From assembly GCF_000018105.1 (NCBI RefSeq), contig NC_009925.1, positions 5,490,001-5,522,000 on the forward strand: 32,000 bases of DNA, given 5' to 3'. The notes beneath the pieces were generated by a model. The model was not told where the DNA came from. It searched no databases and saw nothing but the letters and a program-made list of their open reading frames with translations. This document shows, piece after piece, positions 803 through 31,552 of the stretch (positions are counted from its first letter, which is position 1; the number at the start of each line of letters is the position of its first letter). Position numbers and translations under genes: made by a program. The DNA comes from Acaryochloris marina MBIC11017. GTDB lineage: Bacteria > Cyanobacteriota > Cyanobacteriia > Thermosynechococcales > Thermosynechococcaceae.

Positions 803-805
803 ATC

Positions 806-10516: not shown

Positions 10517-10572
10517 CAGTACACACACCCAACTGGACAAATCCAGATCACGAGAGGAGTCATCGGATCAAA

Positions 10573-11611: not shown

Positions 11612-11625
11612 GTTTTGAAAAGATT

Positions 11626-11946: not shown

Positions 11947-11981
11947 ACCGTCGATCCATTCCTTTCGACCAGGATATACCC

Positions 11982-12254
11982 ATGAGTCAAATTGGCACGA
12001 ATACCACCCAAACCATTTGCTGCCCTCAATGCGGCTCCCCTGCAAGGCGGCTGTATTTTACGAGCTCATATCCGACTCATCTCAAATGTCCTGGTGGCCT
12101 AGTTAACCAGGTTGAGTGTCCGAGTTGTGATTATTTAATGGTGTCCTGCGCTGTTGATGGTCAAGTCGTCGAGGCCTATGCAGAAGGGATATCCACCTAT
12201 CATCACTCCACTCAACCTGGCTCTCCAGACAAGCCTCCCTTACCCATGGCCTAG
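11982..12254 (+). CDS. Small zinc-ribbon-like hypothetical protein
   Basis: 90 aa with CPQCGS...CPSCDY (two CxxC pairs) and a Pro-rich tail. It is packed 35 nt after trxA and 68 nt before the CBS gene. Confidence 0.5.
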   Translation: MSQIGTNTTQTICCPQCGSPARRLYFTSSYPTHLKCPGGLVNQVECPSCDYLMVSCAVDGQVVEAYAEGISTYHHSTQPGSPDKPPLPMA

Positions 12255-12322
12255 GGGTTAACGCTAGTTCAGTCAGCCTTTCTAAAACCTAATTCAATCA
12301 CCATTCCTCAGGAGTCAATGCC

Positions 12323-12778
12323 ATGATGCGCGCAGAAGAAATCATGACCCGAGACGTTGTTGCCATTAGTGGCTCAGCAACCGTCGCCGATGCCGTCAGC
12401 AAGATGAAAGAGAAAGGTCTTCGGGCTTTAATTGTTGAGCCTCGGTATGCAGGTGATCCCTATGGGATGGTGACCCAAACCGACATCGTCTACAAGGTGG
12501 CAGCCTTTGGGTATGACCCCAAAAAGATGAAGGTCTACGAAGTCATGACCAAGCCTTGTATTGTCGTTAATCCTGATTTAGGGGTCGAATACGTCGCTCG
12601 TTTATTTGCCAATACAGGCATTCGCCGTGCCCCAGTCGTTAAAGATCATCTCCTCGGGGTTATTTCCATTAGCGATATTCTCAAAAAGAGTGATTTTGTC
12701 GAGAAACCCAAAAGCAATTTTGAACAATATTGCGAAGAGTTCCCCAATGCTCCTGAAGCCCGAATCTACGAAGACTAG
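12323..12778 (+). CDS. Single CBS-pair (Bateman module) protein
   Basis: 151 aa with the motifs IMTRDVVAISGSATVADAV and LLGVISISDIL. An AGGAG RBS lies 8 nt upstream. Confidence 0.8.
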   Translation: MMRAEEIMTRDVVAISGSATVADAVSKMKEKGLRALIVEPRYAGDPYGMVTQTDIVYKVAAFGYDPKKMKVYEVMTKPCIVVNPDLGVEYVARLFANTGIRRAPVVKDHLLGVISISDILKKSDFVEKPKSNFEQYCEEFPNAPEARIYED

Positions 12779-12795
12779 GGCAATACTCACAAGGC

Positions 12796-14262
12796 TTATC
12801 GCCGAGACAGCTTGAGGATCATGGCACGGATAATGTCGTTCAACTGATTATCCCCCTCCCGTTGAGCCTTAAACCCAGCAGTTTGTAATTGGCGGAGGCC
12901 CGTTTGCTGATCGCCTTTCAAGCTGCTGAGGAGCCCCTTATGAATATCAGTGATGGCTGAGTTAAATGGAAGTTGGAGCTGTCTGATTTTCTCCAGCTCG
13001 GCAATCGTTTTGGCATAGGCAGCCGAATTGCTACCGTTGGATTTATCCTGCAAAACCCGAACAACACCTTTCATCACCTTCGCTTCCGCTAATCGGGGAT
13101 TGAATGCGATCGCACGGTCCAATGCAAACATTGCCCCCTGGTATCGCCACAGCTGCAGTTCTGATAAGGCCTGCCGATAGAGGATCGTGGCATCCAAAGG
13201 GCTGAGAACTAGAGCCTGCCGATAATCACTGAGAGACCCCGATGTATCTCTAGAATTCGCTTTCACCACTCCCCGCTGTACATAGGCTTGGGTATAGTCT
13301 GGATTAAGCTTGATCGCCTGAGTCAGATCCTCAATTGCCTTGAATGAATCTCGTTGCCGATAGTGACCCAGACTGCGGCCATAGTAAGCTTCCACATATT
13401 CAGGATCTAGCTCTATAGCCTCAGAAAAATCAGCAATCGCCCCTGCATAATCCTTACGCTTGAGTTTATCCCCCCCTTGCAAATAAAAATCTGCTGCAGT
13501 GGGTTCCTGCACATCTGGCAGAGGATCAAGCGTTCCTAGGTTGAGGGATGTGAGGGTTAAGGGTAATGAATTAAGAAAAGTATTGATAGGAATCCCTAGA
13601 TTAAATCCAGTTTTGATATAGATATCAGGATTGGTTGCTTCATCTTGAGGTTGAATCGTTTCAGTATCAGCTCTACCATGAATGGCCACCAATCGACCCT
13701 GTTCATCCAAGACAGGACCACCACTCATACCGGGCAACGTACTGTTGGAATAAACCAGTGAGTAGCCATCTGCCAGGGGTTTCGTGGCATTAGCCGTCAC
13801 TTTCCCTTCTGTAAAGTTGTAAATCGACTCCGTCAAGGCCAGGGTTTGGGCTGGAAAACCTGCCACATAAATGGGAGTCCCTTCTGGGGCATCATTCACA
13901 TTACCCATCTTGGCGACTGCATAGGTTTGGGAACTTGAAAATTGAACAACCGCCAGATCCACCCCTTTAAATTTCTGGATACTGGAAGATGTAATCTGAT
14001 GAGTTTGCTGATCAGGAGTTTGAATATCGTAGGTATTAGGCAGATCAACCACATGGGCCGCCGTGGCAACGGTGTAGGTGTTGCCCTCCTTTTTGACAAT
14101 CACCCCGGATCCTAAACCGCCTGGACTGCTAATTCGAACCGTGACATTTTTGGCAAGTTTACTGACTTCCGCTGAACTCAATGCCTGAGCTTGGGGCTGG
14201 CACCAAACCAACGCGGCTGTTGTACCAAACAGGATTGTGGAGAAGTGAAGGGCTTTATGCAT
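12796..14262 (-). CDS. Secreted trypsin-like (S1/chymotrypsin-fold) serine protease fused to C-terminal TPR repeats
   Basis: Signal peptide ending AQA/LS. The catalytic triad contexts are TAAHVV (His70), VDLAVV (Asp102) and GMSGGPV (Ser180). C-terminal TPR-like repeats include AIADFSEAIELDPEYVEAYYGRS and AIEDLTQAIKLNPDYTQAYVQRG. Confidence 0.8.
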   Translation of the reverse strand: MHKALHFSTILFGTTAALVWCQPQAQALSSAEVSKLAKNVTVRISSPGGLGSGVIVKKEGNTYTVATAAHVVDLPNTYDIQTPDQQTHQITSSSIQKFKGVDLAVVQFSSSQTYAVAKMGNVNDAPEGTPIYVAGFPAQTLALTESIYNFTEGKVTANATKPLADGYSLVYSNSTLPGMSGGPVLDEQGRLVAIHGRADTETIQPQDEATNPDIYIKTGFNLGIPINTFLNSLPLTLTSLNLGTLDPLPDVQEPTAADFYLQGGDKLKRKDYAGAIADFSEAIELDPEYVEAYYGRSLGHYRQRDSFKAIEDLTQAIKLNPDYTQAYVQRGVVKANSRDTSGSLSDYRQALVLSPLDATILYRQALSELQLWRYQGAMFALDRAIAFNPRLAEAKVMKGVVRVLQDKSNGSNSAAYAKTIAELEKIRQLQLPFNSAITDIHKGLLSSLKGDQQTGLRQLQTAGFKAQREGDNQLNDIIRAMILKLSRR

Positions 14263-14339
14263 AAATCAAATTGACGAAAACAATAGACAAAAAGGTTCGA
14301 GCGCCACCTAAAAAGGAAGGCCACACCAATGTTTAAGGG

Positions 14340-15878
14340 TTATCTAGCACTCATAAATCGATCTTGAGCAAGGTTGCGAAGCTGCTTCAAATGTTCCTGT
14401 CGTGAAACCGATAACGGAATCATGCCTTGAATCTCTTGAACCAGTAACTCCGTATCCAAAGGTTTCTCTACATAGAGCGCGCGATAAAGCGCTGCCACGA
14501 CCGCCTGCTCGATTTCAGCACCACTATAGCCTTCCGATGCCTGCAATAGAGTAGGCATATCAAAATGGCTGGGATCTTGCTTACGCAGCATCAAATGAAT
14601 ACGGAAAATCGCCCCTCGTTCTTGCAAATCCGGTAAATCCACATAGAAAATCTCATCAAAACGGCCTTTTCGCAGCAGTTCTGGAGGAATTTGGGAAATA
14701 TCATTGGCAGTGGCCACCACAAATACCTCTTGGGACTTTTCCTGCATCCAGGTTAGGAAGAACCCAAACATTCGCCGACTCAGGCCCCCATCTGAATCAG
14801 ACCCTGTAGCCCCCAAGCTTTTCTCAATTTCATCAATCCAGAGAACGGCAGGAGCCATAGATTCTGCTAAGGAGATGGCTTTGCGAAAGTTCTTCTCAGA
14901 TTCCCCCACAAATTTATCGTAGAGACGACCTGCATCTAACTTCAGTAATGGCATTTTCCATTCTCTAGCGATCGCTTTAGCTGCAAGAGATTTGCCGCAT
15001 CCTTGAATCCCTACAATCAAAATTCCCTTCGGTGGAGTTAGGTTCAAAGCTTTAGCGGCGGGACTAAATCCGACCTTGGCTCGTCCCAGCCAATTCTTGA
15101 GATTCGCAAACCCACCCCATTCCACACGATTCCCCTCGACCGGAAGGTAATCCAGCACCCCACCCGCTCGGATCAGTTGGGCCTTGCGATGGAGAATACG
15201 CTCCACATCGTCTGTGGTCAATTTGCCATCATCCAAAGCCGCATAGGCCAGCACTTGTCGGGCTTGTTTCAAGGTCATACCCGTCATGGCTTGAACAAGG
15301 GCCTGCATATCCTGATCTTCTAATTCCACGATGGTGCGGTGTTTATGTCTCATAGTCCGCACCACTTCTTTCACTGTCCGAGACAGCTCATCGCGATCGG
15401 GCAGCTTCAGGTCGTAGACCACAGCATCATGCTCAATTTCCCTAGGTAGCTCAATATTGTCTCCGGTCAACACAAAGGCAGACCGTTTTTGAGAAAAGAG
15501 CTGAGCCGCTTCCCGAAAGTGGCGGGCTGTTTCTGGATCTTCAAAATGTTTGCCGAAATCCTTGAGCCAGAACAATGCCTTAATAGACATATCCTGGACA
15601 TGTTTAAGGACCGCTAAGGGTTCGGCAGTATTACCAATAGCAGCAGGTTTGAGGGTGCCAGGTGGCGCATATTCATTTACCCAAGGCGCATTAAAGGTGC
15701 CAGGAGACCGAATCAGGCCCTGAGCAATGCTCCATTCAAACATCGGAATAGACATTTCCTCCGTCGCTTTCTTAAGAAGGGTTTGAACCCGCTCTTCCTC
15801 TAAAGTTTCAATTACTATGACGGGGTGATAGGACAGGATTAAGGTCTGAATGTCTCGTACACTTACGGATAAGGGCAT
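14340..15878 (-). CDS. AAA+ ATPase, Ycf46-like family
   Basis: Walker [16 protein letters not shown], Walker [10 protein letters not shown] and second region of homology [21 protein letters not shown]. At about 510 aa, the N-terminal domain ([15 protein letters not shown]) and overall layout resemble the cyanobacterial/plastid Ycf46 as I recall it. Family assignment not verified. Confidence 0.7.
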
Positions 15879-16055
15879 AGCCAGAGCGCCAACCAGGAAA
15901 GGATATTATTCTCAAGATTCCCGAATACAAGGATTTTGCTAAAGGCAAGCCTATGTAGCCTCCTTACTAATGCAAGATTTTTAGCCTATTAGACCACCAG
16001 CCAGAATCTAGATTTGGTAGAGTACTAGACGGAGACAGCAGGTCTGGGAGCCATT

Positions 16056-17732
16056 ATGCAACATCTATCGTGGATAAAATGGGGCAAAACAAGTTGCCTC
16101 ACCGCAGCACTGATGATGAGTGGAGCATTGATTGTGCCAGCTCAGGCTCAAGGAGATAATCCTGGTGCAAGTGAACTCCTGCCGACGGAAATTGATGAGC
16201 AACCCCTGCGTCTACCCACGAAAGATCCCAAAATACTGAATCCTGATCCGAAAATACTGGACGTACCGACTGCATCGCAAGATGTCACTATTGATCCGGA
16301 CCTCGATCAAGCGATTACATTGGAGCAAGCTTTAGAGCTGGCTAAGCGCAATAATCGAGATTTACAGGTTGTGGAATTGCAGGTCCGCCAGTCAAAAGCA
16401 GCATTAGCAGAAGCCAAAGCCGCAGAACTCCCAACCATCAGTGCCCAAGCGAGCCTCAACCGCACAGATTCTGCAACATCACGGATCATCAACGAGCAGC
16501 AAGTAGAAGCCCAAGTCGAAGGTATTGAAGATCAAATTCAGCAGCTACAAGCCCAATTACCTGGGGCAAATGCAGCTCAAACAGCGATTTTAAATCAGAC
16601 GATTCAAGGATTGCAGACTCAAATTCAAACCATTCGGGATCAGCCCCCTCTTTTTCCTTCAGTCAGCAATCTGTTCAACACTAGCGTTCAGCTAAACTAC
16701 GATGTCTTCACTTCTGGACAACGCTCAGCTAGCATTCGCGCTGCTGAGTCTGCCCTTAAGGCCGCTGAAAAATCCCTAGAAACCCAGTTACAGCAGCTGC
16801 GCCTAGACGTTTCAAATGACTATTACGATATGCAGCAGGCCGATGAGTTGGTCCAGATTGCCAAGGCAGCGGTGAAAAATGCTGAAGAAACGTTGGATAA
16901 TACTCGGGCCTTGGAACAGGCAGGTTTAGGCACTCGATTTGATGTTCTACGTTCAGAAGTCCAGCTGGCAAACCAGCAGCAACAGCTCTCTCAAGCCCAA
17001 AGCCAACAGCTCACTGCTCGACGCCAATTGGCTCAGCGCTTAAGCCTCAATCCCAAAGCAACTTTATCGGCTGCTGATCCGGTCAAAATTGCCGGGTTAT
17101 GGCCCATGTCCTTGACAAATACGATTGCCAAGGCCCAACAGAATCGGTCCGAACTTGGTGAGATATTAGACCAAAGACAAATTGCCCAGCAGAATGAGCG
17201 ATTGGTTAAAGGAAGTTTTGGCCCCCAGGTTAGTGTAGCTGCCAGTGGGAATTTTGCGGTTGATTTGGACGACTTGACTGATGCCTTTGGCTATTCCCTG
17301 GGTGGACAGGTTACCAAGTTATTGTTTGATGGAGGCGCGACCAAAGCCAACGCCCGACAGCAAGCCCTAGGGGCAAAAATTGCTGAGACTCAATTTGCCA
17401 ATTTTAAAAATCTGGTTCGGTTCCAGGTCGAGCAGAACTACTTTACCTTACAGTCCAGCTTTAAAAATATTGCGACCAATGAATGTGCGGTGATCCAAGC
17501 AGAGCAAAGTTTAGAGCTAGCTCGATTGCGCTCCAAAGCAGGGATTGGGACTCAACTTGAAGTCAGTAACGCTGAAACAGAACTCACGCGAACCCGCAGT
17601 AATCGCTTGCAGGCAATCATTGACTACAATCGCGCCTTAATTGCCCTGGAGCGTTTTGTCGGCCATCGACAACAGCAGGCCAGAGTCGGTGAAGTTCCTT
17701 CCCCTGGGGAAAAACTTTGCAATCAGGCTTAA
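16056..17732 (+). CDS. tolC: TolC-family outer-membrane efflux protein
   Basis: Signal peptide ending PAQAQG, then two OEP-type repeats (LTLEQALELAKRNNRDLQ... and RSELGEILDQRQIAQ...). 558 aa. Confidence 0.8.
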   Translation: MQHLSWIKWGKTSCLTAALMMSGALIVPAQAQGDNPGASELLPTEIDEQPLRLPTKDPKILNPDPKILDVPTASQDVTIDPDLDQAITLEQALELAKRNNRDLQVVELQVRQSKAALAEAKAAELPTISAQASLNRTDSATSRIINEQQVEAQVEGIEDQIQQLQAQLPGANAAQTAILNQTIQGLQTQIQTIRDQPPLFPSVSNLFNTSVQLNYDVFTSGQRSASIRAAESALKAAEKSLETQLQQLRLDVSNDYYDMQQADELVQIAKAAVKNAEETLDNTRALEQAGLGTRFDVLRSEVQLANQQQQLSQAQSQQLTARRQLAQRLSLNPKATLSAADPVKIAGLWPMSLTNTIAKAQQNRSELGEILDQRQIAQQNERLVKGSFGPQVSVAASGNFAVDLDDLTDAFGYSLGGQVTKLLFDGGATKANARQQALGAKIAETQFANFKNLVRFQVEQNYFTLQSSFKNIATNECAVIQAEQSLELARLRSKAGIGTQLEVSNAETELTRTRSNRLQAIIDYNRALIALERFVGHRQQQARVGEVPSPGEKLCNQA

Positions 17733-17838
17733 CGGGAAAGCTTAAATTTCTTCCTCATTGCTGCGTAATCTCACAATATTCATCTGATAACTAGACAAAT
17801 GCGGGGTAGGTGCCGCATTGGATCTGCATGAATGAGGG

Positions 17839-18814
17839 TTGGGGATGGCTCATAATCGATTGCTGGTGTCTTTGAATGGAGACAGGCTACAGTTATCGTG
17901 GCAACGGGGACAGGAATATCCTCGGCAGGCCCCCGAAGTAGATTTTAACCATCCGTTTGAGCCCAAGGTACTTGCAGATTTACGCTGGTATCTAGAGGAA
18001 TATTTGAGCTTTCCCTACGGATTAAACCCAGACAAAGCGATAGCCATTGAACAAAAGTTCCAGGGCTGGGGACAAACTTTATTTGAGCTAATTTTCCAAA
18101 GCACTGATGAAGGCCGAGAATTTTTTCAAGAGGCAACACGGTCAGGCTTAGATACTTGCGAACTGGGGATCTCTTCGGACAATCCTCAAGTGTTGAACTT
18201 GCCTTGGGAATTGTTATATTCCCCCAAAGATTTATTTCTAGCCCCCAAGCTGTCCGGGATGTACCGAACCCTAAGCCATCAACGGGTGCGGGCGGAAACG
18301 CCTGAATTGCCAAGGGATCAGCTCAATATCTTACTTGTGATTGCTCGTCCCTATGAACAGGATATCGGGTTCCAAACGATTGCCCGTCCCATGTTGGAAG
18401 CGTTACGCCCGTTGCAGAAGTTTGTGAATCTGAAGGTGTTACGTCCCCCTAGTTTTACCGAGTTTGAAAGAGAGCTAAACACTCATCGACAGGGGTTTTA
18501 TCACATCGTCCATTTTGATAGGCATGGCTCCTTTAATCCCAATGCTGGGCGGCAATTTAATCTGATGGATGCTTCTGGCCAAGGGGAGTTGGTGTTTGAA
18601 ACCTTAAAGGGCGAAGCAGAGGTGGTCAGTGCAGACCGCATTGCCCAAAGTTTGACAGACTGCCGAGTCCCTGTGTTTGTTCTCAACGCTTGTAAGTCGG
18701 CCCAAGAGGGAGAAGAAGAGTTTTCTTCGGTGGCAACCCGGTTTATTTTCGCTGGGGCCAAGGGGGTCGTGGCTATGGCCTATAGCATCCATGCCGAAGC
18801 GGCTAAACATTTTA
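17839..18814 (+). pseudogene. CHAT (caspase-fold) protease domain; 5' fragment of a CHAT-NB-ARC-TPR gene cut by an IS insertion
   Basis: CHAT dyad contexts are HIVHFDRHG (His229) and VFVLNACKSAQ (Cys285). The reading frame runs into the ISL3 inverted repeat at 18815 and stops after 5 foreign codons. The first ATG is at 17845; the track uses the TTG at 17839. Confidence 0.8.
18807..18814. repeat. Left target-site duplication of the ISL3 element (ACATTTTA)
   Basis: Identical 8-mer at 21111-21118, immediately outside the two inverted repeats. Confidence 0.85.
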
Positions 18815-18868
18815 GGCTCTCCGGGAATTAGCGTGGTAGCCGCTAGATATAGTGTTTAGGTCACAGCG

Positions 18869-18876
18869 AATGTCTG
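18869..18876. repeat. Left target-site duplication of the nested IS1-family element (AATGTCTG)
   Basis: Identical 8-mer at 19780-19787, flanking the IS1-type inverted repeats. Confidence 0.8.
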
Positions 18877-18885
18877 GATTGTGCA

Positions 18886-19386
18886 TCAACAAAGTGTGGG
18901 ATAGGAAGCTAAGTCTTGCCATCTCCAAGGACGCTCCGTCAATCCAGCTCGTTGGGCAGCCGTGTTCTTGAATCGAGAGTGGCACCAAATCCAGTTGAAA
19001 TAGCTCAGCACCAATCTTAAAGTCATCGCACTCTGTTGCCAGACTTTGCCAAATTTATTCTGTCGTCGATGCCAACGCCCGGTCTGCTGACGCACGATGC
19101 CATTGGTCCGCTCTAAGCGTTGGGTCAGGGCTTTACTCACTTCATGGACGACCTCATCGGGTAATTGTCGTGCGTACCCTTCCCAACCATCCGTTTGCCA
19201 ATGATGACAGGCGGTTTTGCCCTCAGTATTTTCAATCAATTCTTGAGCTAGCTCGTCGGTATGTTTGCCAATACGGCCACTGAGCACGAGACCACTCTCT
19301 TTCGCAAGACTCAATGCTATCCAGCAGTCGCCTACCCTCAACTCCTTCGGCTCACAGTGCTTTTGCTTTTTTTGACAAAGGACCAC
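18886..19386 (-). CDS. IS1-family transposase orfB (DDE part, normally made as an orfAB frameshift fusion)
   Basis: 166-aa ORF overlapping orfA. A -1 shift at the A7 run gives ...DELWSFVKKKQKHCEPKELRVGDCWIALS..., the layout typical of IS1 InsAB'. Confidence 0.75.
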   Translation of the reverse strand: MVLCQKKQKHCEPKELRVGDCWIALSLAKESGLVLSGRIGKHTDELAQELIENTEGKTACHHWQTDGWEGYARQLPDEVVHEVSKALTQRLERTNGIVRQQTGRWHRRQNKFGKVWQQSAMTLRLVLSYFNWIWCHSRFKNTAAQRAGLTERPWRWQDLASYPTLC

Positions 19387-19715
19387 AACTCATCTGCATT
19401 AATGACGTCGGTCGCAACGGCCTGAACTTCCCCATTGTGAATCATTTGGGATTTATGACTCGCTGAACGAACCACACTCACACAAGTGTTATACGCTACA
19501 CCCGTGATGCGAGAGAGTCCTCGTAGACTACTCCCTTCAACATGAGCTTGAAGGATGGTCTGGATCGTTTCAGGAGAGATCTGACGGCGATAACACAGGG
19601 TGTCAAAGGTCTCACTAAAGGTCTGTTGACAGTGGGGGCAACGGTAACGTTGACTGCCTTTGCTGGTCTTGCCATGTTTGTGGGTTTTAGGATGACCACA
19701 TAGAGGACATTGCAT
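19338..19715 (-). CDS. IS1-family transposase orfA (zinc finger + HTH)
   Basis: MQCPLCGHPKTHKHGKTSKGSQRYRCPHCQQTF... followed by an HTH-like segment (LRGLSRITGVAYNTCVSVV). The ATG at 19715 is preferred over the track start at 19730. Confidence 0.75.
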   Translation of the reverse strand: MQCPLCGHPKTHKHGKTSKGSQRYRCPHCQQTFSETFDTLCYRRQISPETIQTILQAHVEGSSLRGLSRITGVAYNTCVSVVRSASHKSQMIHNGEVQAVATDVINADELWSFVKKSKSTVSRRS

Positions 19716-19739
19716 GAGGAAATAAAACAACTCGACTCC

Positions 19740-21011
19740 CTATCGGTTTAACAAACCCACACTTCTTTGATGCACGACCAATGTCTGATACCCATTGAGG
19801 TCAAGAGAAATCCTTTGGAAGAGTCTTTCAATATCGAAAATACCGTAGCATCGTCTTTTTAAGACTTTGACTCGGTTATTAAATCCTTCCACAAAACCAC
19901 TGGTCCACCCCTCCAGGAAATAGTTGGTCATCTCGTCCATCCAATTATTGATAGTGGTCAGAAAACAATCGAATTCCTTGATGTCACTCTTGAGTACTTG
20001 TTTACACCAAGCACGGATGGCACATTTAGCTCCGTGCTTGGTGTACCTGCCCTCAAATATCTGCGTGAGTTTCTCTCGGAGGTTGTACGCCTGTTTCAGT
20101 TGTGGAGAATAAGCAAACAATCGCTCAAGGAGTTGTTGCTCTGACTCTTTCAGATTCTCTGGTCGTTTTCTAAAAGGCCACATCGCGCCTTTGATGCTGT
20201 CATACTCTTGCTTAGAGAGCTCTCGTCGTAGACGTTTGACCTCACGTTTACGAACCGTATCAGCACAATTACGATAGGCTTTGGTCACATGAAAGCGGTC
20301 AATGACAATTTTGGCTTGCGGCAATTGTTCTCGGACTGCACTGACAAATCCTTGGTACATGTCCGTACAGACGCGCTCAATGGTTTGGCGTAAATCAATG
20401 GGAATCGATTGAAGGAAATTTGCCACTGTCTGCTGTTTACGGTCGGCTAGAACTGCCAATATATCCACCCCATCCGTCGTAGGAATCGTGATCAAAACCA
20501 CAAAATCACGATGGCCTCGTTTGAGAGAAATCTCATCCATCCCCATAACTTTGAGGTCTGCATATTCGCTCCAGTCAACTTGAGCGGCAATCCAACGATC
20601 AATGATTCCACTGACGATATCCTCACTAACGCCTAGTTTTCTGGCAACATCTGAGACCGTTGAATTGATCAAGATTCGCAGAAGCCAACGCTCATATGCT
20701 TTTGTATTGGGACTGCGAGGTTCGTGCCATTCTAAATGTTGAGTTGTTGTGGGATGGTCATCGCAATACTTGCATCGATAACGCTTGGGCCGAATTTCTA
20801 AGTAAACGGGGACTTCAAATAATGGCAGGTGACGAATCCGAAAAGGCTGATCATGACAATGGAGGTCAGTAATCTCACGTCCGCATTGATGACAGGTTGT
20901 TCCTTGAAGCGTACTCTCAATCTTGATGAGCCAATCCCCTCTCTCAGTCTTCGATAGCTCTAGAACTCGAATATCAGGAAGGTTGAGCGGGATGCGAATT
21001 GAGTTATCCAT
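19740..21011 (-). CDS. ISL3-family transposase (C-terminal codons replaced by read-through into the nested IS1 end)
   Basis: 423 aa with an N-terminal zinc finger (CHQCG...CKYCD) and a DDE_Tnp_ISL3-like core (MGMDEISLKRGHRDFVVLI..., CTDMYQGF..., GFVEGFNNRVKVLKRRCYG). The last 12 codons lie beyond the IS1 insertion point. Confidence 0.85.
   Translation of the reverse strand: MDNSIRIPLNLPDIRVLELSKTERGDWLIKIESTLQGTTCHQCGREITDLHCHDQPFRIRHLPLFEVPVYLEIRPKRYRCKYCDDHPTTTQHLEWHEPRSPNTKAYERWLLRILINSTVSDVARKLGVSEDIVSGIIDRWIAAQVDWSEYADLKVMGMDEISLKRGHRDFVVLITIPTTDGVDILAVLADRKQQTVANFLQSIPIDLRQTIERVCTDMYQGFVSAVREQLPQAKIVIDRFHVTKAYRNCADTVRKREVKRLRRELSKQEYDSIKGAMWPFRKRPENLKESEQQLLERLFAYSPQLKQAYNLREKLTQIFEGRYTKHGAKCAIRAWCKQVLKSDIKEFDCFLTTINNWMDEMTNYFLEGWTSGFVEGFNNRVKVLKRRCYGIFDIERLFQRISLDLNGYQTLVVHQRSVGLLNR
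19780..19787. repeat. Right target-site duplication of the nested IS1-family element (AATGTCTG)
   Basis: Matches 18869-18876. Confidence 0.8.
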
Positions 21012-21110
21012 TACGCCATTGCTCTGAAGTACTACCTCAGATCATTCCATAGGGATGAAAAAGGAAACACACTAAATGTAGGACTGCTACACGCTAATTC
21101 CCAGAGAGCC

Positions 21111-21118
21111 ACATTTTA
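21111..21118. repeat. Right target-site duplication of the ISL3 element (ACATTTTA)
   Basis: Matches 18807-18814. Confidence 0.85.
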
Positions 21119-23324
21119 TGGCCCGATTTTATGGTGAGTTAGTTGGAGGAGCCAACCTATCAACTGCCGTTGCAGCCGCTCGCATTTCTGTTTTAAACCA
21201 ACCCAAACGGCTAAGCCCACGTGGGCAACGAACCCTAAAAGATTGGTTAGTACCTGTGCTTTACCAACAGGAAGCCTATACACCCTTTACACCCCAAACC
21301 CCTACCCCTAGCTTTGCTGCCTTGATGGCCGCAGCGGAACAGGAGGAGGAACAGGTCGAAGCCCAGGTAACAAATTTACCCGAAGCGGGTACCTATGGAT
21401 TTGTGGGGCGCAGTGCCGAAATTCTGGTACTAGAACGAGCCTTTCGGCAAAACAATGTGGTGCTACTCAAAGGCATGGGTGGAGTCGGCAAAACTCAGTT
21501 GGCGTTAGGGTTTGGCCGCTGGCTAGCCGAAACCCAAGGCCGTGATGGTGGTATTTTCTTTACGTCCTTTGAACAGGGAGCAACGTTAAGCAATGTGGTC
21601 AATGAAATTGGGCGTCAGTTGGGAGGGGAACGCTTTGTCTCATTGATGGCAGACCAACAAGAACAAATCGTTCTGGAGTATCTAAACACTAACCCCTGTT
21701 TATTGATTTGGGATAATTTTGAGCCCGTCGCCGGATTTCCCGCCGGGAATCAGCCCCTGTTGACAGAGCCAGAGCGGCAGCGACTCCAGCAGTGGCTAAA
21801 GGCAATGCGAGGAGGAAAGTCTTGGGTGTTAATGACCAGTCGGCGGGATGAGCCTTGGCTGGATTGTGGCTATCGCTTAGTGCCTTTGGCTGGATTATCA
21901 AGGCCAAATCGCCGCTATCCGGGGTTATCGGACTCGGAAGCGTTGGCTACTCAGATTTTGCAAACGGTCAATGTAGAACTCAAAAACCTACCCCCAGAAT
22001 ACTTAGAGCTATTGAAACTACTGGGGGGCATCCGCTGTCTTTGCGAGTGGTGTTGCCTCATTTGCAACGCCAAACCCCAACAGCTTTGATCGAAGCACTG
22101 CGGCAAGGACTAAACACCTTTGTCGGAGCTGAAGAGGAAGGTCGAGAAAAGTCCCTAACGGTGTCATTAGACTACTCCTTTGAAGCGTTATCAGAACGGA
22201 CCCGCCAACATCTCCCTTTCTTGGCCCTGTTTTCGGAACGCGTCTTTGCAGATTGGCTGTATTTTTTTTCCCGTGACCCTGAGAGTGAATGGGGGCAGGT
22301 CTATCGAGAAGTATTTGGAGAAAATTTGCAGCAGGCAGATTGGATGGCTATTTTGCAGGAAGCCGCCGCAGCCAGCATCGTGGAGCCCTTAGGGGCTACG
22401 ATTTTTCAGATTCATCCAGCATTGCCTTGGTACTTACGGCAGCGTCTGAGTCAACAAGCTGTCAAGGCTGGTGTAGATGCAGCAGATGGAGGGATTGCAA
22501 ACCTAGAAAAAAAGTTGCTCAGTTTTTATGGCAGTTTAGCTACTCACTATGAACAACAGTTGATCAGCAATGCTGAAGAAGCAAGCTTCGTCCTACGAGT
22601 AGAGGAACCTAACTTGTTGCAGCAGTTACGATTAGCTGAGCAACAGGAGGATTGGGGCAATGCACAATACCTGTTACAGGCATTAGGAGAACTGTATAAG
22701 AGGATTGGGCGAAAGCCTGAGTTAAGAGCTTTATGTGAGCAAGGATTATTTCAAGTAGGCATTCGTTTATCAGAAGTACGTGATAAAGGTAGCGATGCAT
22801 CGGAGTTCTGGATGTATTTGCAAGGACGAAAAGCAAACGACGCTTTGGAAGCTGCAGATATTGATGGGGCACGTGAAATTCTTGAAGAACTCTTGGCTGA
22901 GTTGGAATTACTCCGTGATCCTAAGTTTGGTAGCAAAATAGCTGTTGCTCAACACCAATTAGGCAGGGTTGCCGAGAAACAACGCCGATTTGACGACGCG
23001 ATCGCACTCTACCAAAAAGCTCTCAAAATCTTTGAAGATGCCGGGGACCTATACAGCGCGGCCCGTGATTATTACCTATTAGGTAGGGTTGCTGAAGCCC
23101 AAGAAAATTACTCTGAGGCCCTGCAATATTATATTTTGACTCTTGCAATTGCTTTAGAACACAACCAAGATTTGATCCCATTGAGTCTTCAAGCTCTAGG
23201 GCAAATGTTGAAGCAATTTGGTACAGATAATTTTAAGTCTCGATGGAGAAAAATTACCCAAGCAGAATGCCCAGATGAATACTTCTCAGCCATTCAGACT
23301 GCAAGTCAACAAAGCGAGAATTAA
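21118..23324 (+). pseudogene. 3' part of the interrupted CHAT gene: NB-ARC-like P-loop NTPase plus TPR repeats, frameshifted at a G6 run
   Basis: Walker A GMGGVGKTQLA (nt 21472-21495) and Walker B-like CLLIWDNFE. Frame 1 reads ...EYLELLKLLGG and then goes out of frame at GGGGGG (22023-22028). Frame 3 continues with HPLSLRVVLPHL... (the STAND GxP motif) and TPR-like repeats to the stop at 23324. One extra base after the G6 run would join the two frames. Confidence 0.8.
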
Positions 23325-23376
23325 TCAGGCTTTCAATGTAACTTGATTCCCCCGAATCTCTAAATTCAAAATACCT

Positions 23377-23808
23377 ATGGACAATCAACTAACCACAACC
23401 GAACTCCAAGAAACTAGCCAGCTTCTTCAAAATTACGGACCTGCTCAAGAAGCCCTCAACACCCTCAAACAACATCAGGGCAATCTCGATGCGAGTTTTA
23501 ACGAATTATGGACCTCTGCCGTCGGTACCCCCGAAACCTTTGCCCGCGAAGGACAATCCCTCTGGCAAGCCACCCTTAGCGTCCTCCGCGATGAACTCTG
23601 CGGTGATGAAAGCTTTCGGTCCAAAATTTTGGACTACAACAAAAATCCAGGTAGTGCTTCCCTGTTAACGGGGGCCGTTATCACCTTAATCGAGCTAACC
23701 ACTCTCCCCCTTAACCCAGCCATGGCAACAATTGTTGTCCTTTATATTCTTAAAGTGGGCCTTAACATTTTTTGCAAATACACAGAACCCAGTTCTAGTG
23801 AGACATAA
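23377..23808 (+). CDS. Hypothetical small protein with a hydrophobic C-terminal segment
   Basis: 143 aa with an ATG 52 nt after the CHAT-STAND stop. The helical N-terminal two thirds are followed by LLTGAVITLIELTTLPLNPAMATIVVLYILKVGLNIF (1-2 predicted TM helices). No family recognised. Confidence 0.5.
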   Translation: MDNQLTTTELQETSQLLQNYGPAQEALNTLKQHQGNLDASFNELWTSAVGTPETFAREGQSLWQATLSVLRDELCGDESFRSKILDYNKNPGSASLLTGAVITLIELTTLPLNPAMATIVVLYILKVGLNIFCKYTEPSSSET

Positions 23809-23876
23809 TTGATGGCTCACTCTACCTATTCGCCAGCTACTCCAATACCTGAAAGCATTGAAAGCGTTTGCACTCG

Positions 23877-23911
23877 CCCCCTCAATCCCCCATTCTGGGG
23901 GACTTTGAGCC
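23877..23911. repeat. Small palindromic repeat unit A (TCCCCCA-TTC-TGGGGGA core)
   Basis: CCCCCTCAATCCCCCATTCTGGGGGACTTTGAGCC. The 7-bp arms are extended by imperfect CTCAA/CTTTGAG pairing. It closely matches the reverse complement of unit B. Confidence 0.7.
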
Positions 23912-23995
23912 TATATCTAGGCTGAGTATAGAAATTGAAATCCCTAGGGCTGCTGAGGTTTAACTCTATTGCAGGACTTGTGCGGGTTGATCAGG

Positions 23996-24028
23996 CAAGT
24001 CCCCCACTGGTGGGGGATTTAGGGGGCC
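23996..24028. repeat. Small palindromic repeat unit B (TCCCCCA-CTGG-TGGGGGA core), inverted relative to unit A
   Basis: CAAGTCCCCCACTGGTGGGGGATTTAGGGGGCC. Its reverse complement, ...CTAAATCCCCCACCAGTGGGGGACTTG, aligns with unit A (CTCAATCCCCCATTCTGGGGGACTTTG). Confidence 0.7.
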
Positions 24029-24109
24029 ATCAGTGGCATTAAGGCTGTGGGAGATAGAGGACAGAGCCGTATTCAACCATAATTTCCGGTGTTATTGAGT
24101 TCATTATCC

Positions 24110-24787
24110 CTAATTTAGAACTTGCCCCACAAAGTCCTGATGCTCAACGGTACCTAATCCTTGCTGCAACACCGCCAATACTTGTGCCATATCGCCAGCC
24201 AGCAAAGCTGTCCCATCCAGCCATAGCCCTGGAAATACCTGACTATGAAAGACGCCCTGCTTGTCTGTCCCTAGCGAGACATACTCATCTTCATTTAACA
24301 CAAACCAATCAAGCTGCGCTTCCAGCGTCCGCCACACAATATATTCCTGAACACCATTGCGTCGATACGCCCGCTTCTTATCATGCAAATCAATAGCAAC
24401 ACTGCTTGCTGCAATCTCAATCACTAGCTCCGGTGCCCCTTCAATATAGTCATCCTCCCCAATCCGGGCCTGTTGCCCCGGTACAAACAAAACAACATCG
24501 GGCTGCGGCTCATTATCAGGATCTAGACGAACGGTTGGTTCCACCCCCATCACTGTTCCTGGCGTTAAAGCTTTGTAGGTTCCTAACCAAGCAATGACAT
24601 CACCATGAGGTTCACCATGACTTTTAATTCTGAGAGGGGATGACATGTTGTAAACAACACCTTCAATAAGCTCTGCTTTTCGCAATTGCGGCATGGCCTG
24701 ATAGCGACGCTCAAACTCAGATCGAGATAGGCGGTCGCCATTCTCTAAAGGCGGAATAACCAGTCGTTGTTGAGGCGTTGACACCAT
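24110..24787 (-). CDS. Uma2-family (DUF820) putative endonuclease
   Basis: 225 aa with the family landmarks AELIEGVVYNMSSP, PQPDVVLFV, APELVIEIAASS..DLHDKKRAYRRNGVQEYIVW. Confidence 0.85.
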   Translation of the reverse strand: MVSTPQQRLVIPPLENGDRLSRSEFERRYQAMPQLRKAELIEGVVYNMSSPLRIKSHGEPHGDVIAWLGTYKALTPGTVMGVEPTVRLDPDNEPQPDVVLFVPGQQARIGEDDYIEGAPELVIEIAASSVAIDLHDKKRAYRRNGVQEYIVWRTLEAQLDWFVLNEDEYVSLGTDKQGVFHSQVFPGLWLDGTALLAGDMAQVLAVLQQGLGTVEHQDFVGQVLN

Positions 24788-24862
24788 CTTTTGGGGGTTG
24801 GGGAGAAAAGCTTGCTGTCTTCAGTTTAGCCTGGACAAAGACTTGGCAATTACCCTCGACGA

Positions 24863-26416
24863 TTATCCTTCATCTTCAGATTTCTCAGGTTTTAAGAGGG
24901 GGAAAGCAATCACATCGCGAATACTGGCCGCATCACTCAGCAGCATTGCTAAGCGATCTATACCAATGCCTAATCCGCCTGTGGGAGGCATGCCATATTC
25001 CAAGGCAGTGATGAAGTCCTCATCCACACCGTGCGCTTCCAAGTCGCCTGCTTCCTTACGGGCAGCTTGAGCCTCTAAGCGCTGACGCTGATCCACTGGA
25101 TCCGTCAATTCTGAGAAACTATTGGCGGTCTCTCGACCCACGATAAACAGTTCGAATCGTTCAACCAGTCCAGACTGCGACCGGTGGGGTTTCGCTAAGG
25201 GGGAAATCTCAACTGGATAGTCAAGAATAAAGGTGGGTTGAATTAGAGTCGCCTCTACCTTTTGCTCAAAGGCTTCGTTCAAAACATGCCCCACACTCTC
25301 ACAATCGTCTACCCCTGTGATGCCTGCCTTCGTTGCCGCTTTTTGGGCTGCTTCTACCGTCTCAAAAGTGGTGAAATCTAGCCCCGTTTTCTCTTGCACT
25401 GCATCATGCATAGTCACTCGTCGCCACGGAGAGGTGAGATCGATGGTTTCGCCTTGGTAAGGCACTTTCAAACTGCCCACAGAACGTTCTGCTGCAGTAC
25501 AGATCAACGCTTCCGTTAAATCCATCATGTCGTTGTAGTCGGCATAGGCTTGGTAAACTTCGATGGTCGTGAACTCTGGGTTGTGGCGGGTGGAAATCCC
25601 TTCGTTACGAAATACTCGTCCCAGTTCAAAGACTTTTTCAAAACCGCCAACAATTAGGCGCTTCAAATGCAGTTCCGTTGCGATCCGCAGATACAGATCC
25701 ATCTCCATTGTGTTGTGGTAAGTGATGAACGGACGGGCCTCTGCACCTCCTGCTTCGGAGTTCAAGACGGGGGTTTCAATTTCAATAAATCCCTGCTCGT
25801 CTAAATAGCGGCGAATACTGGCGGTGATCTGAGCCCGTCGTCGAAACGTCTCCCGTACAGATGGATTGACAATCAGATCTACATAGCGTTGGCGATATCG
25901 CTTGGCAATATCAGTCAAGCCATGCCATTTGTCAGGTAGGGGCAATAAGGACTTGGTGAGCACAGTGTAGGTCTGTACATAGACAGAGAGTTCACCTTTA
26001 TCGGTACGCTTAATAGTGCCTTGAACCCCGATGAAGTCCCCCACGTCAGTGAGCTGTTTGAGGTGGTTAAAGGCTTGCTCATCTTGCTCCCCCATCTGCT
26101 CTTGAATCCGCTTTTTTTCCAAGTAGAGCTGGATGGTTCCTGTTTCGTCCTGGAGGTTGAAGAAGGCCAGTTTACCGAAAACGCGGCGAGCGAGGATACG
26201 ACCTGCGATCGCAACCTCAAAATCCTCCTCTTCACCATTCGCCAGATCCACAAATTTCTCTTGTAGAGCCTGGGCAGTATGGGTAGACTGCCACCGATAG
26301 GCATAGGGGGTTAAGCCTGCTTGTTTGAGCTGCTCAACCTTTTGCAAACGAGTAGCTCTCACTTCTTCTAAAGTGGAGCCCTGGTTGGGTGACTCAGACG
26401 CCCGATCAGCAGCCAT
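24863..26416 (-). CDS. lysS: Lysine--tRNA ligase (class II)
   Basis: 517 aa. An OB-fold anticodon-binding N-domain ([29 protein letters not shown]) is followed by the class II core with [26 protein letters not shown] and [15 protein letters not shown]. Confidence 0.95.
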
Positions 26417-26610
26417 AGATAATCCTTAAATGAAAAACTTCAAACCAAGTTCTAGATCAAATCACAACTCATTCCACAGGAATGATTGCAATACCAGAGT
26501 TTCGATTATAGAGGAAGGATGACCTGCAACTTGACCAAATCAGGGGTAGACATTTGCCTCATAAGACTGCTGTCCCACGCTCAAATCATGGGGATGCTGG
26601 CTTCTAAATT

Positions 26611-26946
26611 TCAGATAAAGCTGGCAATGTAATTGCGGATGTCTTCATCAGAACTCAGCTTCATCTGGTCTGAGTGATCAAAGAAGTCAATCTGAACAGT
26701 TGAGCCATCCGGACGCCGAACCGTGAATCCGAAGTCCTCCAGAATGACGTCACGATGCTGCCATTGGTCAACAATGGTTAATTCAGGGGTATCTCGAATA
26801 ATCCGCTGAACCTGATGAAATTTACCGTAATACCCAAACTCAACCCATGGAGCAGTAATCGGCGCAAATACGTATAGCCATATACCAAAGATAGAGAGTA
26901 GGGTAAACCCACACATCAATCTGAGTAAAGTTCGTACCGTTTTCAT
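26611..26946 (-). CDS. Small membrane-anchored hypothetical protein
   Basis: MKTVRTLLRLMCGFTLLSIFGIWLYVFAPI... has one N-terminal TM helix and then an ~80-aa soluble domain. The ATG at 26946 is preferred over the TTG at 26952. Confidence 0.5.
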   Translation of the reverse strand: MKTVRTLLRLMCGFTLLSIFGIWLYVFAPITAPWVEFGYYGKFHQVQRIIRDTPELTIVDQWQHRDVILEDFGFTVRRPDGSTVQIDFFDHSDQMKLSSDEDIRNYIASFI

Positions 26947-27271
26947 GGCCAAAAACTAAATTTTTTCCCCACATACTATTTAAGATAGCTTTTCTTGAAT
27001 TAGAAACTTGTTAATTTAAGCGATTCAGCACATACTGCCATTGCTATCACAACACAAGCAGAGGCAAACATCAAAACATAGAGTTTCAGCGAACTTACGT
27101 CACCATTCTTAGACTCGTCAGCAGATTAATAAAAAGCGATTCAAAAGGCTTAGAAGCCACAACACTGACAGTTCCACTTCAAAGTCTTAGTATTAGTAAC
27201 AGATTGCTAGACTTCTTCAGTAAGATTTGCCAGTATCTACCTTAACGTCGCTGACAAACTTTTATTTACCG

Positions 27272-28666
27272 TTAATTCTCATTATCAGGAATTGGAAAGT
27301 CTTCTGCAAAATAGTTCTCATTCGCATAGTTAATTGCTGATCGGACCGTATCTTGATGCCAAGGTACAAAGACAGCCAAAATATCCCCTGTCTCAGCCTT
27401 AACCCGCTTTAAAACATGAGTGTCACTAACCCCTACACCTTTTAACTTGAGGAGGGCATACTCTTGCAAAGTATCCACCTCGATTAGAGGGAGTTCTTGA
27501 CAAACCCGAATTGCCCCAAGGGATTGAACTAACATCTCTTGCAATGCCCGATTCCGTTCCTCAAAAACCCACTGGGCTTGCCATTCTTGAGGATGAACAG
27601 TGCCATATTTTTCAGGTATAGGAGTTCCGTGATACGCATAGGCAGCAAAACCATCCGCAAACTGCACAGCAGGCTCTCCCTCACCGTGCAATTGATAATC
27701 ATCATCGATCAGAATATGAGTGGGGCGATCACAAATGATACACAGATTATCAACTGCAAAAACCCAACCGCAATATTTAGCTAACCCTTGTAAAGCAGCC
27801 CATTTCTTAGCATCATAGGGATAATTGAGTTCTGAAATAGCAAAATCTAGCCAACTACATTGATATGCAAATTCAGAAATAACTACAACTGCATTCTCTA
27901 CTAAATACTTCTGCTCAGAAAAGGATAGCGGCATAGCCAGGGTTTCCCGAAAACGAGGGGACTCCATACCGTTAATTTTTGCAATTAATGTCCCCTGCAG
28001 ATATTTCTTCATCCATCCCTGAAAGAAATATTCTTTGCCTGGAAGCCAACCCAATTGCATGTCAAGAGCAAATGCTGTATCACTAAATGATCTCTGCCAA
28101 TCTTCTTGAGATTTATCCTGGATCCTTTTTGAAAATTCTGGATCTCCTCGACGAGCTTGATGTTTGCCTAGCAAATCAATCATCGGCGTAGCACTCAGGA
28201 AAACTTGCTCAACCATGTCTTGAGTACTTAGATCTTTAGGAAGGCAGCGTTCAATATGTTTTTCAACCGCTTGGGTGGGTTTATTTGAAACTTCCTTCAA
28301 TAAATCATAAATGGGTTTCGTACCTGAATTCTGCTGTTTATTGCTTTGCTTGATCGTCCCCCATGCTGCTTCTGCAAAAAACTGAATGAAATTATTCTGG
28401 ATATCTTCTTTCGTTCGACTACGGGGATTTTGTGGAATATCTACTTGCGAGACTTGGGCTTGCAGATGATCTAACGCCGCCCGCGGGCTGGAGCAAAAAA
28501 CAACATCTGGTTCGGGTTTGCCCATAACGGCATAAACACCTTTAATTGCAGCCGCTGCTCGGACTTTTTCAATCGGTTGTGTGATTACACTAATTCGCTT
28601 CCATTTCTCCTGATATTCAGGGGTTTTTGCTTCTTGTTCAGGGGTCAAAAAACGAATCTCAGGCAT
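27272..28666 (-). CDS. Large hypothetical protein of a cyanobacteria-rich uncharacterised family (possibly the one catalogued as DUF6745)
   Basis: 464 aa. The N-terminus LTPEQEAKTPEYQEKWKRISVITQPIEKVRAAAAIKGVYAVMGKPEPDVVF and the C-terminal CDRPTHILIDDDYQLHGEGEPAVQFADGFAAYAYHGTPIPEKYG resemble a paralogous family I recall from filamentous cyanobacteria. Unverified. Confidence 0.6.
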   Translation of the reverse strand: MPEIRFLTPEQEAKTPEYQEKWKRISVITQPIEKVRAAAAIKGVYAVMGKPEPDVVFCSSPRAALDHLQAQVSQVDIPQNPRSRTKEDIQNNFIQFFAEAAWGTIKQSNKQQNSGTKPIYDLLKEVSNKPTQAVEKHIERCLPKDLSTQDMVEQVFLSATPMIDLLGKHQARRGDPEFSKRIQDKSQEDWQRSFSDTAFALDMQLGWLPGKEYFFQGWMKKYLQGTLIAKINGMESPRFRETLAMPLSFSEQKYLVENAVVVISEFAYQCSWLDFAISELNYPYDAKKWAALQGLAKYCGWVFAVDNLCIICDRPTHILIDDDYQLHGEGEPAVQFADGFAAYAYHGTPIPEKYGTVHPQEWQAQWVFEERNRALQEMLVQSLGAIRVCQELPLIEVDTLQEYALLKLKGVGVSDTHVLKRVKAETGDILAVFVPWHQDTVRSAINYANENYFAEDFPIPDNEN

Positions 28667-29054
28667 TTTGTCACTACTTTAAAACCTTCTGTTCATATTT
28701 ATTATTCCCAAGATTTAATCCGAACAGCTAGAGACAGATCATAAAAAAATTGAGCGCTTAAATTATCAGCTTCACAATATTATCAATGGCAATATTGGAT
28801 TTTGGCTCACATTAATAGCAATACCTCCCCGTCTGATAAAGGATCGCGATGCACTAAATCTTTCCCTACATACTCCATACCCAGTGAGGCAACACTGAAG
28901 ATCGGGTGATGTGGGTAAACGTAGCGATTCGAGACCTAACCTTTTCCTGTTTTGATATGGAGCGATTTCTCAAAAACCTCATCTGTAACTTATGAAGATT
29001 TGCTACTGAATCCAGGCCGTAGAGGGACCCGTTTTAGTAGCCTGGGAAGGTTGG

Positions 29055-31467: not shown

Positions 31468-31552
31468 GCAAAATCAAGAAAAAAGCCTGCAAAAGCCCTA
31501 CCACAGCTAAATGCTCAGGCAAGTCACTGGCAAACAGACAATCAAGTTGGAA

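Follow-up and report, generated by a model that had tools for sequence, protein, structure and literature searches.

A 32,000-nt stretch of Acaryochloris marina MBIC11017 (NC_009925.1, positions 5,490,001 to 5,522,000; hereafter the window, in whose coordinates positions are given) contains the remains of a gene for a protein that combines a CHAT protease, a STAND NTPase and tetratricopeptide (TPR) repeats. The remains consist of three plus-strand open reading frames (ORFs) at 17839-18831, 21118-22089 and 21855-23324, the first two of which are parted by 2.3 kb of minus-strand transposase genes. Directly downstream on the same strand lies an intact gene for a 143-residue protein, here called p143 (23377-23808). 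We regard the remains as very probably those of a resident gene for an all-in-one NLR-like protein that was killed recently, by several lesions, in the lineage of A. marina MBIC11017 and MBIC10699, as part of a recurrent loss in Acaryochloris that has left p143 behind.

Reconstruction of the reading frame

Deletion of 18815-21118 and addition of one base at the G-run at 22023-22028 gives a single open frame of 1,060 codons (1,058 from the ATG at 17845) that is colinear with more than 1,400 cyanobacterial homologues. A first-pass annotation of the window, made from the letters alone, had predicted such a CHAT/STAND-NTPase/TPR frame of about 1,060 residues, and the prediction holds. Translation probably starts at ATG 17845 and not at TTG 17839, because homologues begin there. 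The first reconstructed junction (HAEAAKHF/MARFYGELVGG) reads the same in P0001 and P0002, which are the closest relatives, and the second (LLKLLGG/HPLSLRVV) agrees with nine of nine homologues in a detailed alignment.

ORF, Pfam and alignment evidence divide the gene into three plus-strand parts. The 5′ third (17845-18814) encodes the N-terminal region, which is conserved, and the larger part of the CHAT domain, the middle part (21119-22028) the end of CHAT, a linker and the P-loop NTPase up to its GxP motif, and the off-frame 3′ part (22029-23324) the rest of the NTPase, a helical region, one 40-residue TPR unit, a cap and the stop codon. In the reconstructed protein Pfam places CHAT (PF12770) at residues 103-357 with 94 bits (cut-off 24), preceded in the alignment by the conserved N-terminal region. 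The catalytic dyad is retained as His229 (codon 18523-18525; HFDGHG motif in relatives) and Cys285 (codon 18691-18693; LNACKS). After repair the NTPase motifs follow in order, with Walker A (GMGGVGKT) at residue 444, its codons starting at 21473, Walker B (LLIWDNFE) at 520 and GxP (GGHPLSL) at 628. TPR repeats are recognized at residues 933-1004 (TPR_12, 43.7 bits; cut-off 30.1). The earlier positions for both catalytic residues, for GMGGVGKT and GGHPLSL, and for a HIP1 site at 22998 are correct. The NB-ARC label of that annotation is right as to the P-loop and GGHPLSL, but the Pfam signal at residues 420-529 is weak and NB-ARC stays below its gathering score (18.1 against 23.5 bits), for which reason 'STAND NTPase, NB-ARC-like' appears the safer name. 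An insert of seven residues in the NTPase (RPNRRYPGL) was considered as a lesion and rejected, as P0001 and P0002 have it too.

Nested insertion sequences in the CHAT domain

The first break lies at residue 325, within the CHAT domain and C-terminal of the catalytic cysteine. The first-pass annotation had rightly placed a 2.3-kb insertion sequence (IS) in this domain, but the insertion comprises two nested elements, one of the IS1 family inside one of the ISL3 family (ISAcma10-like), each with its own 8-bp target duplication. The ISL3-family element (18815-21110, minus strand; 1,385 bp without its passenger) has 21-nt terminal inverted repeats at 18815-18835 and 21090-21110 (GGCTCTCCGGGAATTAGCGTG; 95% complementary) and is flanked by perfect 8-bp direct repeats, ACATTTTA, at 18807-18814 and 21111-21118. 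Its transposase ORF (19740-21011, minus strand) scores 338.5 bits with NF033550 (cut-off 180) and 252.7 bits with Pfam DDE_Tnp_ISL3.

The IS1-family element (18877-19779, minus strand; 903 bp, with terminal repeats of about 24 nt) lies between 8-bp target duplications, AATGTCTG, at 18869-18876 and 19780-19787. Its InsA-like (19338-19730) and InsB-like (18886-19386) minus-strand ORFs share an overlap that contains a slippery A7 run (T7 on the plus strand, 19367-19373), as is usual in the frameshift arrangement of IS1. Between them the two ORFs match NF033558 at model positions 1-112 and 113-199, and Pfam DDE_Tnp_IS1 matches the nested element with 36.8 bits (cut-off 24.1). The ISL3 element entered the gene first and the IS1 element entered ISL3 afterwards, because IS1 has truncated the ISL3 transposase ORF at its 3′ end: an uninterrupted transposase ends in ...LNGYQTFAVT, and in the window ORF read-through into IS1 takes the place of the last few codons. 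Three MBIC10699 plasmids carry ISL3 copies, annotated as ISAcma10 family, that are 100% identical to the window element and lack IS1. A second IS1-family copy, 87% identical to the nested one, leaves the window at its right edge (31770-32000), just past a minus-strand tRNA-Leu(CAA) gene (31553-31633).

Further lesions and their age

We compared the window copy with three other Acaryochloris alleles, located through exact matches of neighbouring proteins, as split copies rank low in a protein-based contig scan. These are Acaryochloris sp. 'Moss Beach' (CP071717; locus L001) and contigs from SRR17348481 (L002) and SRR29694087 (L084).

The second lesion is the loss of one base at the G6 run (22023-22028, plus strand), which breaks the frame at the GxP motif (restored sequence, LLKLLGGHPLSL). 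The lost base is either the seventh G of a G7 run or an A following G6; the corresponding sequences are CTGGGGGGACAT in Moss Beach and TTAGGGGGGCAT in L002, and most intact homologues have G6-G7 at this position. Both this loss and the IS insertion, the two inactivating events first proposed, are real, but a third lesion had been overlooked: codon 228 (18520-18522, plus strand) is AGG (Arg), whereas relatives have GGG or GGA (Gly), giving HFDRHG for HFDGHG. Gly228, adjacent to His229, is the residue found in at least 97% of 118 homologues and also in the three other Acaryochloris alleles; Arg occurs only in the MBIC11017/MBIC10699 lineage. Across 336 columns that are at least 97% conserved, the window copy deviates uniquely at two, G228R and K880R.

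Of the TPR array the window copy has about one canonical 40-residue unit and the cap, where Moss Beach has 7.8 tandem 120-bp units; it is the shortest array among the complete family members seen, and we list it with the lesions as a possible one. The HIP1 octamer at 22998-23005 (GCGATCGC) codes for the D-A-I-A motif of the TPR unit, and Moss Beach has eight HIP1 sites (L001 12500-13341), spaced 120 bp apart, one per TPR repeat. The divergent C-terminal tail was also considered as decay and rejected, the cap sequence of Moss Beach being the same.

In pairwise comparisons with Moss Beach, L002 and L084, the ratio of non-synonymous to synonymous substitution rates (dN/dS) is 0.06-0.23 in every segment, including that downstream of the frameshift; comparison values are 0.05 for the OEP gene and 0.12-0.16 for the 143-residue gene. 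These low ratios indicate that the gene was under purifying selection over nearly all of the inter-allele divergence, until shortly before each loss, and that it died recently; the small number of unique deviations and the identity of the ISL3 element to its plasmid copies also speak for a recent death. The low ratios could also be taken as a sign that each of the three ORFs works as a gene of its own, one encoding, for instance, only a CHAT fragment and another only a TPR protein, the more so as all three are open and are annotated as separate coding sequences and proteins in GenBank (AP026075.1). However, low dN/dS is expected in any case if the breaks are recent, the first break falls inside CHAT (residue 325 of a domain spanning 103-357) and the second inside the NTPase at GxP, and no homologue among those aligned or inspected is naturally split at either point. 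We therefore consider functional splitting extremely unlikely, and the three GenBank fragments would be better flagged as one pseudogene.

Presence of the lesions in other assemblies and residency of the gene

The finished chromosome of A. marina MBIC10699 (AP026075.1) has the nested ISs, the G6 run and Arg228 exactly as in the window, with 99.98% identity over window positions 13377-32000. The lesions are therefore not assembly errors and are older than the split between MBIC11017 and MBIC10699. Homopolymers and repeated ISs are typical sources of error, so that a homopolymer miscall combined with a misassembled IS might be suspected. Besides the MBIC10699 chromosome, however, short-read assemblies of several independent runs reproduce the G6 run and are 100% identical to the window flanks, with contigs ending at the IS ends, and perfect target-site duplications flank both elements. 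The likelihood of an artefact is thus negligible.

Moss Beach has the same gene order as the window (protease, AAA, OEP, CHAT gene, 143-residue gene, Uma2, LysRS) at 87-92% nucleotide identity, and the ISL3 target is empty, with continuous sequence, in Moss Beach, L002 and L084. The GC content of the pseudogene (0.48-0.49) is like that of its neighbours. On this sequence evidence the gene is resident, as the first-pass annotation had argued, and synteny supports this better than the single HIP1 site does.

Between 6058 and 27732 the window and MBIC10699 differ at 186 mismatches, nearly all of which fall within 8568-13102 (4.5 kb, about 4% divergence); only two, at 14175 and 20424, lie outside. 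The divergent segment looks like a recombination tract between the strains.

Independent breaks in other Acaryochloris lineages

Each of the three other alleles is also broken. In Moss Beach an IS630-family element (L001 9001-9959) is inserted at a TA that matches window 18152/3, and a second break is a +1 frameshift in the TPR array, where an A5 run of one unit has gained an A. In L002 the first 26 nt of the contig belong to another IS630-like terminus, which occupies this TA as well, and the remaining gene is open. L084 has lost one base at the G-run, as the window has, and keeps Gly228; where its contig stops, at a TA close to window 22307, there is an IS630-like terminus that agrees with that of L002 in 20 of 25 positions. 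The occurrence of two different IS630-like termini (L001 9001-9959 and L002 1-28) at one TA (window 18152-18153) suggests that this is a preferred IS target site.

In the alleles whose G-run is interrupted the frame is kept (G6+A in L001, TTA+G6 in L002), and the loss is found in the window and L084, where the run would be G7. Differences between the alleles of the window and L084 begin within 6-20 nt of the run on either side. Downstream of it, 14 of the 38 changes between them are non-synonymous, where neutrality would give 74% (p = 1.6e-6). Because dN/dS is low downstream of the run, parallel slippage in a G7 run seems more likely than one old, inherited frameshift. The shared deletion was also considered as proof that the frameshift preceded the IS, an idea against which the same low downstream dN/dS argues.

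The same observations might be read as a contingency tract, that is, a reversible switch operating by phase variation: two diverged alleles have lost the same base, interrupted runs are in frame, and G6-G7 runs are the rule among intact homologues. Against this, every independent assembly of the window lineage has G6, without length variation, the gene cannot be switched on again once the ISs have entered it, and G228R also points to decay. Phase variation is not known to be an established mechanism in cyanobacteria. We consider such a switch very improbable.

The orthologue thus appears broken, by different events, in four of the four Acaryochloris lineages read. In a collection of 5.8 billion proteins we found no orthologue of more than 66% identity other than the truncated P0001 and P0002. 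Repeated loss of the gene is most simply explained by a dispensable, perhaps costly gene combined with very active ISs and a slippage-prone G-run.

The CHAT–STAND–TPR family

Outside Acaryochloris, uninterrupted homologues are abundant, full-length and encoded by single ORFs; the two halves are not normally separate genes. The search of the 5.8 billion proteins gave 1,468 homologues at E ≤ 1e-5, the best 120 of which are single cyanobacterial proteins of about 1,060-1,480 residues that align to at least 94% of the query and are 56-66% identical to it. A contig scan with the reconstructed protein returned 80 intact homologues, all in genera other than Acaryochloris. At several cyanobacterial loci from unrelated genomes (L040, L051, L070 and L080) the gene is split in two ORFs, usually inside the TPR array; frameshifts, or errors in assembling the 120-bp repeats, may account for this.

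CHAT is matched in 25 of 25 homologues examined, and the NTPase of the same proteins matches NB-ARC (19), nSTAND1 (18) and NACHT (8) at E ≤ 1e-3, all weakly. The 25 members, from distant cyanobacterial orders, share 63-87% identity, which is unusually high for an immune sensor. PADLOC returned only generic TPR, BovA and SAVED_CHAT matches for the window protein (E 3e-5 or weaker), with a similar outcome for the intact homologue P0046 of Nostoc punctiforme, and a PDB sequence search with P0046 returned TPR proteins only.

A small partner protein, p143

Neither the constancy of p143 nor the independent breaks elsewhere in Acaryochloris had been part of the first-pass annotation. Of the 80 cyanobacterial CHAT–STAND–TPR loci, 49-55 have a p143 homologue downstream in the same orientation; one is wanting in only about 7 of the roughly 62 loci with enough downstream DNA. 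In L007, L008, L009, L021, L029, L045 and about 30 more Nostocales loci, one to three small same-strand ORFs stand between the CHAT gene and p143. They comprise a family of about 95 residues, with 44 copies spread over 35 loci and in places arranged in tandem, and sometimes a 150-residue ORF and REP-type transposase-like ORFs.

In the reverse direction, five of six p143 homologues picked from long contigs adjoin a CHAT or Peptidase_C14 gene. One is immediately upstream of a CHAT-TPR gene in Nodosilinea, one is convergent with a CHAT-NACHT-TPR gene in Calothrix, and one is downstream of a 748-residue CHAT gene. Two are immediately upstream of short Peptidase_C14 genes that adjoin a MoxR-type AAA_5 gene, one of these also being next to VMAP-C. 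The sixth is followed by small fragmentary ORFs.

The p143 family has 138 representatives at 50% clustering, almost all of them stand-alone proteins of about 140 residues. Two cysteines are invariant in their alignment, and towards the C terminus a hydrophobic helix-loop-helix is conserved. The AlphaFold2 model of p143, which is confident overall (pLDDT 89, pTM 0.86), has eight helices and no strands; a loop at about residues 50-60 is poorly predicted. There is no Pfam or NCBIfam match. Foldseek comparison of the model with PDB and BFVD gave nothing significant (best E 1.3); the weak matches are to Bcl-2-family proteins and EntV (TM-score at most 0.39), and a pore-former fold is not supported by this structure comparison. 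A 15-residue likeness (SF..LW.E..G) between p143 and the C-terminal tail of the large protein (E 0.12) was judged to be chance. The PADLOC model PDC-M35B is matched nearly over its full length by 30 of 34 p143-family members (best E 3.7e-9) and by the window p143 at model positions 7-143 of 148 (E 3.5e-5), this model having no curated threshold, whereas PDC-M35A is not matched by four proteases adjoining p143 homologues. PDC-M35 is a candidate system only, the name was not found in the literature searched, and the pairing of p143 with proteases may differ from it.

Just downstream of the CHAT/p143 pair the window has a minus-strand gene for a Uma2-family putative endonuclease (24110-24787). 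Uma2 genes also occur near a p143 homologue in locus L107, which may be coincidence, as the family is abundant in cyanobacteria.

A low-GC caspase–nSTAND1 gene in the same window

A second gene for a caspase-fold protease with a STAND NTPase lies at 806-3847 (minus strand; 1,013 residues, uninterrupted). Its Pfam matches are complete, with 60.8 bits for Peptidase_C14 (cut-off 21.4; model positions 4-222 of 233) and 381.6 bits for nSTAND1 (cut-off 27.1; positions 1-378 of 379). The GC content of the gene is 0.31 and that at third codon positions (GC3) 0.18, against 0.48 and 0.45-0.49 in host genes. Among the homologues found there is an identical copy in Acaryochloris marina, and the nearest non-identical one is 52% identical. 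The gene belongs to an island of about 7 kb (GC 0.28-0.34) that covers window positions 1-4100 and continues beyond the left edge (L096 7500-14500), contains three further unannotated ORFs (442, 128 and 307 residues, the last with several hydrophobic segments), and is bordered by IS remnants. No HIP1 site occurs upstream of 8646 in the window. Short minus-strand ORFs at 4240-4780, with a Cys-rich zinc-finger N terminus (4589-4774) and a DDE-like C-terminal piece (4241-4393), look like transposase remnants at the border between island and host. From its sequence it is reasonable to call the gene intact and foreign, as it had been called before.

The first-pass annotation had asked whether this incoming gene replaces the lost function, as part of a rapid turnover of conflict systems. 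Adaptive replacement would mean that the acquired caspase–nSTAND1 protein took over the role of the resident one, which then decayed. The two genes, 14 kb apart, each join a caspase-fold protease to a STAND NTPase; the incoming one is intact and foreign in composition, and the states of both are common to the window strain and MBIC10699. However, the two belong to different families (CHAT against Peptidase_C14, an NB-ARC-like NTPase against nSTAND1, a TPR sensor against a non-repeat C terminus), and no p143-like partner turned up when the low-GC island was searched in six frames. Moreover, the resident gene is broken in Moss Beach, L002 and L084 as well, and among all homologues found for the island gene none exceeds 52% identity apart from the identical Acaryochloris copy; loss therefore does not track gain. 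High IS activity by itself accounts for the decay (PMC8763236). Replacement is thus improbable, with nothing that ties the two genes together in function, and what stands of the turnover idea is that the resident gene is dead and in turnover.

A possible mechanism

By analogy with STAND and NLR proteins, a ligand bound by the TPR array would trigger NTP-dependent oligomerization, bringing CHAT domains together and so activating the protease. The activated CHAT protease would then cleave a target, for which EACC1 and Pepco (bioRxiv 10.1101/2025.11.14.688446) and the antitoxin cleaved by MaOC1 (PMC7935541) offer precedents and p143 is the best candidate, either as target or as co-factor, because its family travels with caspase-fold proteases of three architectures. 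In the window the protease can no longer be made, and of the pair p143 alone is intact.

A more tentative and, in our view, doubtful proposal is that p143 is a previously undescribed constant component of cyanobacterial caspase-fold systems, a latent effector or regulator that the adjacent CHAT or C14 protease would cleave or bind, which would make the pair a new module beside EACC1, Pepco and gasdermin. If so, p143 may be kept under purifying selection in Acaryochloris for a role independent of the protease. Alternatively, the module may be being dismantled protease-first, an ungated effector being harmless and an ungated protease not.

Several points weigh against our reading of the locus as a whole. 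The chain from sensor to protease to target is drawn from architecture, and the case for p143 as a substrate from association; profile-profile comparison of p143 with the N-terminal region and with the whole of the large protein found no shared domain or motif (best probability 0.5%). The high conservation of the family could instead reflect a housekeeping or regulatory function, such as the CHAT protease HetF has, and not defence, and PADLOC finds no Avs-type or other named system for the large protein. As to recurrent loss, the G-run deletion in the window and L084 could be common by descent, and what is taken for IS ends in L002 and L084 amounts to 25-27 nt at the tips of contigs and not to whole elements.

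The pseudogene is of a known kind, an IS-disrupted NLR-like gene of the long-known CHAT–STAND–TPR class, and in itself minor, IS-rich Acaryochloris genomes being expected to lose dispensable genes. Taken together, the four diverged alleles, each with its own lesions and with dN/dS near 0.1, offer a clean natural case in which an NLR-like gene was lost recently and in parallel. The family is among the best-conserved NLR-like proteins of cyanobacteria and has a small partner that is also found beside unrelated caspase-fold proteases, and the protease/p143 pairs bear on what cyanobacterial caspase homologues act upon.

Comparison with known systems

Acaryochloris genomes have a heavy load of ISs, with many near-identical active copies (Miller et al. 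2021, PMC8763236). The ISL3 element, 100% identical to plasmid copies, is of this kind, but that study tracked ISAm1 in CCMEE 5410 under laboratory evolution, whereas here ISL3, IS1 and IS630 families have entered one gene in natural isolates.

Proteins that combine CHAT, an NB-ARC or NACHT STAND NTPase and TPR or WD repeats form the 'all-in-one' NLR-like class (Koonin & Aravind 2002, as cited in bioRxiv 10.1101/2020.01.06.895854); the same bacterial class appears in PMC7159879 and PMC8195603. The window family agrees with it in the three-part layout, in a CHAT domain above threshold, in the Walker A, Walker B and GxP motifs, in its occurrence in cyanobacteria and in a TPR array of near-identical units whose copy number varies by strain. 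It differs in that its NTPase fits no Pfam STAND model well, in its high conservation across orders and in its dedicated small partner; this copy, moreover, is dead.

Other protease systems with small associated proteins offer partial parallels to p143. CATRA/CATASP is a caspase-dependent conflict system with an associated small protein (bioRxiv 10.1101/2025.11.14.688446 and PMC8195603, citing Burroughs & Aravind 2020); the likeness to this locus is one of description, and no model named CATRA or CATASP was matched by the CHAT or p143 family in the scans run. The effectors of the Bell-domain and amyloid type have a hydrophobic N-terminal helix and a short motif in common with the NLR N terminus (bioRxiv 10.1101/2020.01.06.895854), whereas the hydrophobic helices of p143 are C-terminal and it has no motif in common with the NLR N terminus. 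The cyanobacterial orthocaspase MaOC1 has a toxin-antitoxin module downstream and cleaves the antitoxin (PMC7935541). Small downstream genes are a shared feature, for which the one to three ORFs before p143 in many Nostocales may be compared, but the window lacks intervening ORFs and p143 is not recognizable as a toxin or an antitoxin.

Further parallels are EACC1, found with caspase-Avs12, and Pepco, found with trypsin, which are protease-gated effectors (Evans et al., bioRxiv 10.1101/2025.11.14.688446). EACC1 has one conserved transmembrane helix, a Gly-rich centre, alpha+beta extensions and a beta-sheet autoinhibitory part (PMC7159879), unlike p143, which is a predicted eight-helix bundle without strands and for which pore formation or cleavage would be by analogy only. 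In these modules, as at this locus, a small non-enzymatic protein lies beside a caspase-fold protease fused to varied sensors; and in the p143 family, too, the small protein is constant and the protease varies, being a CHAT–STAND–TPR protein, a shorter CHAT protein or a short Peptidase_C14 next to MoxR or VMAP.

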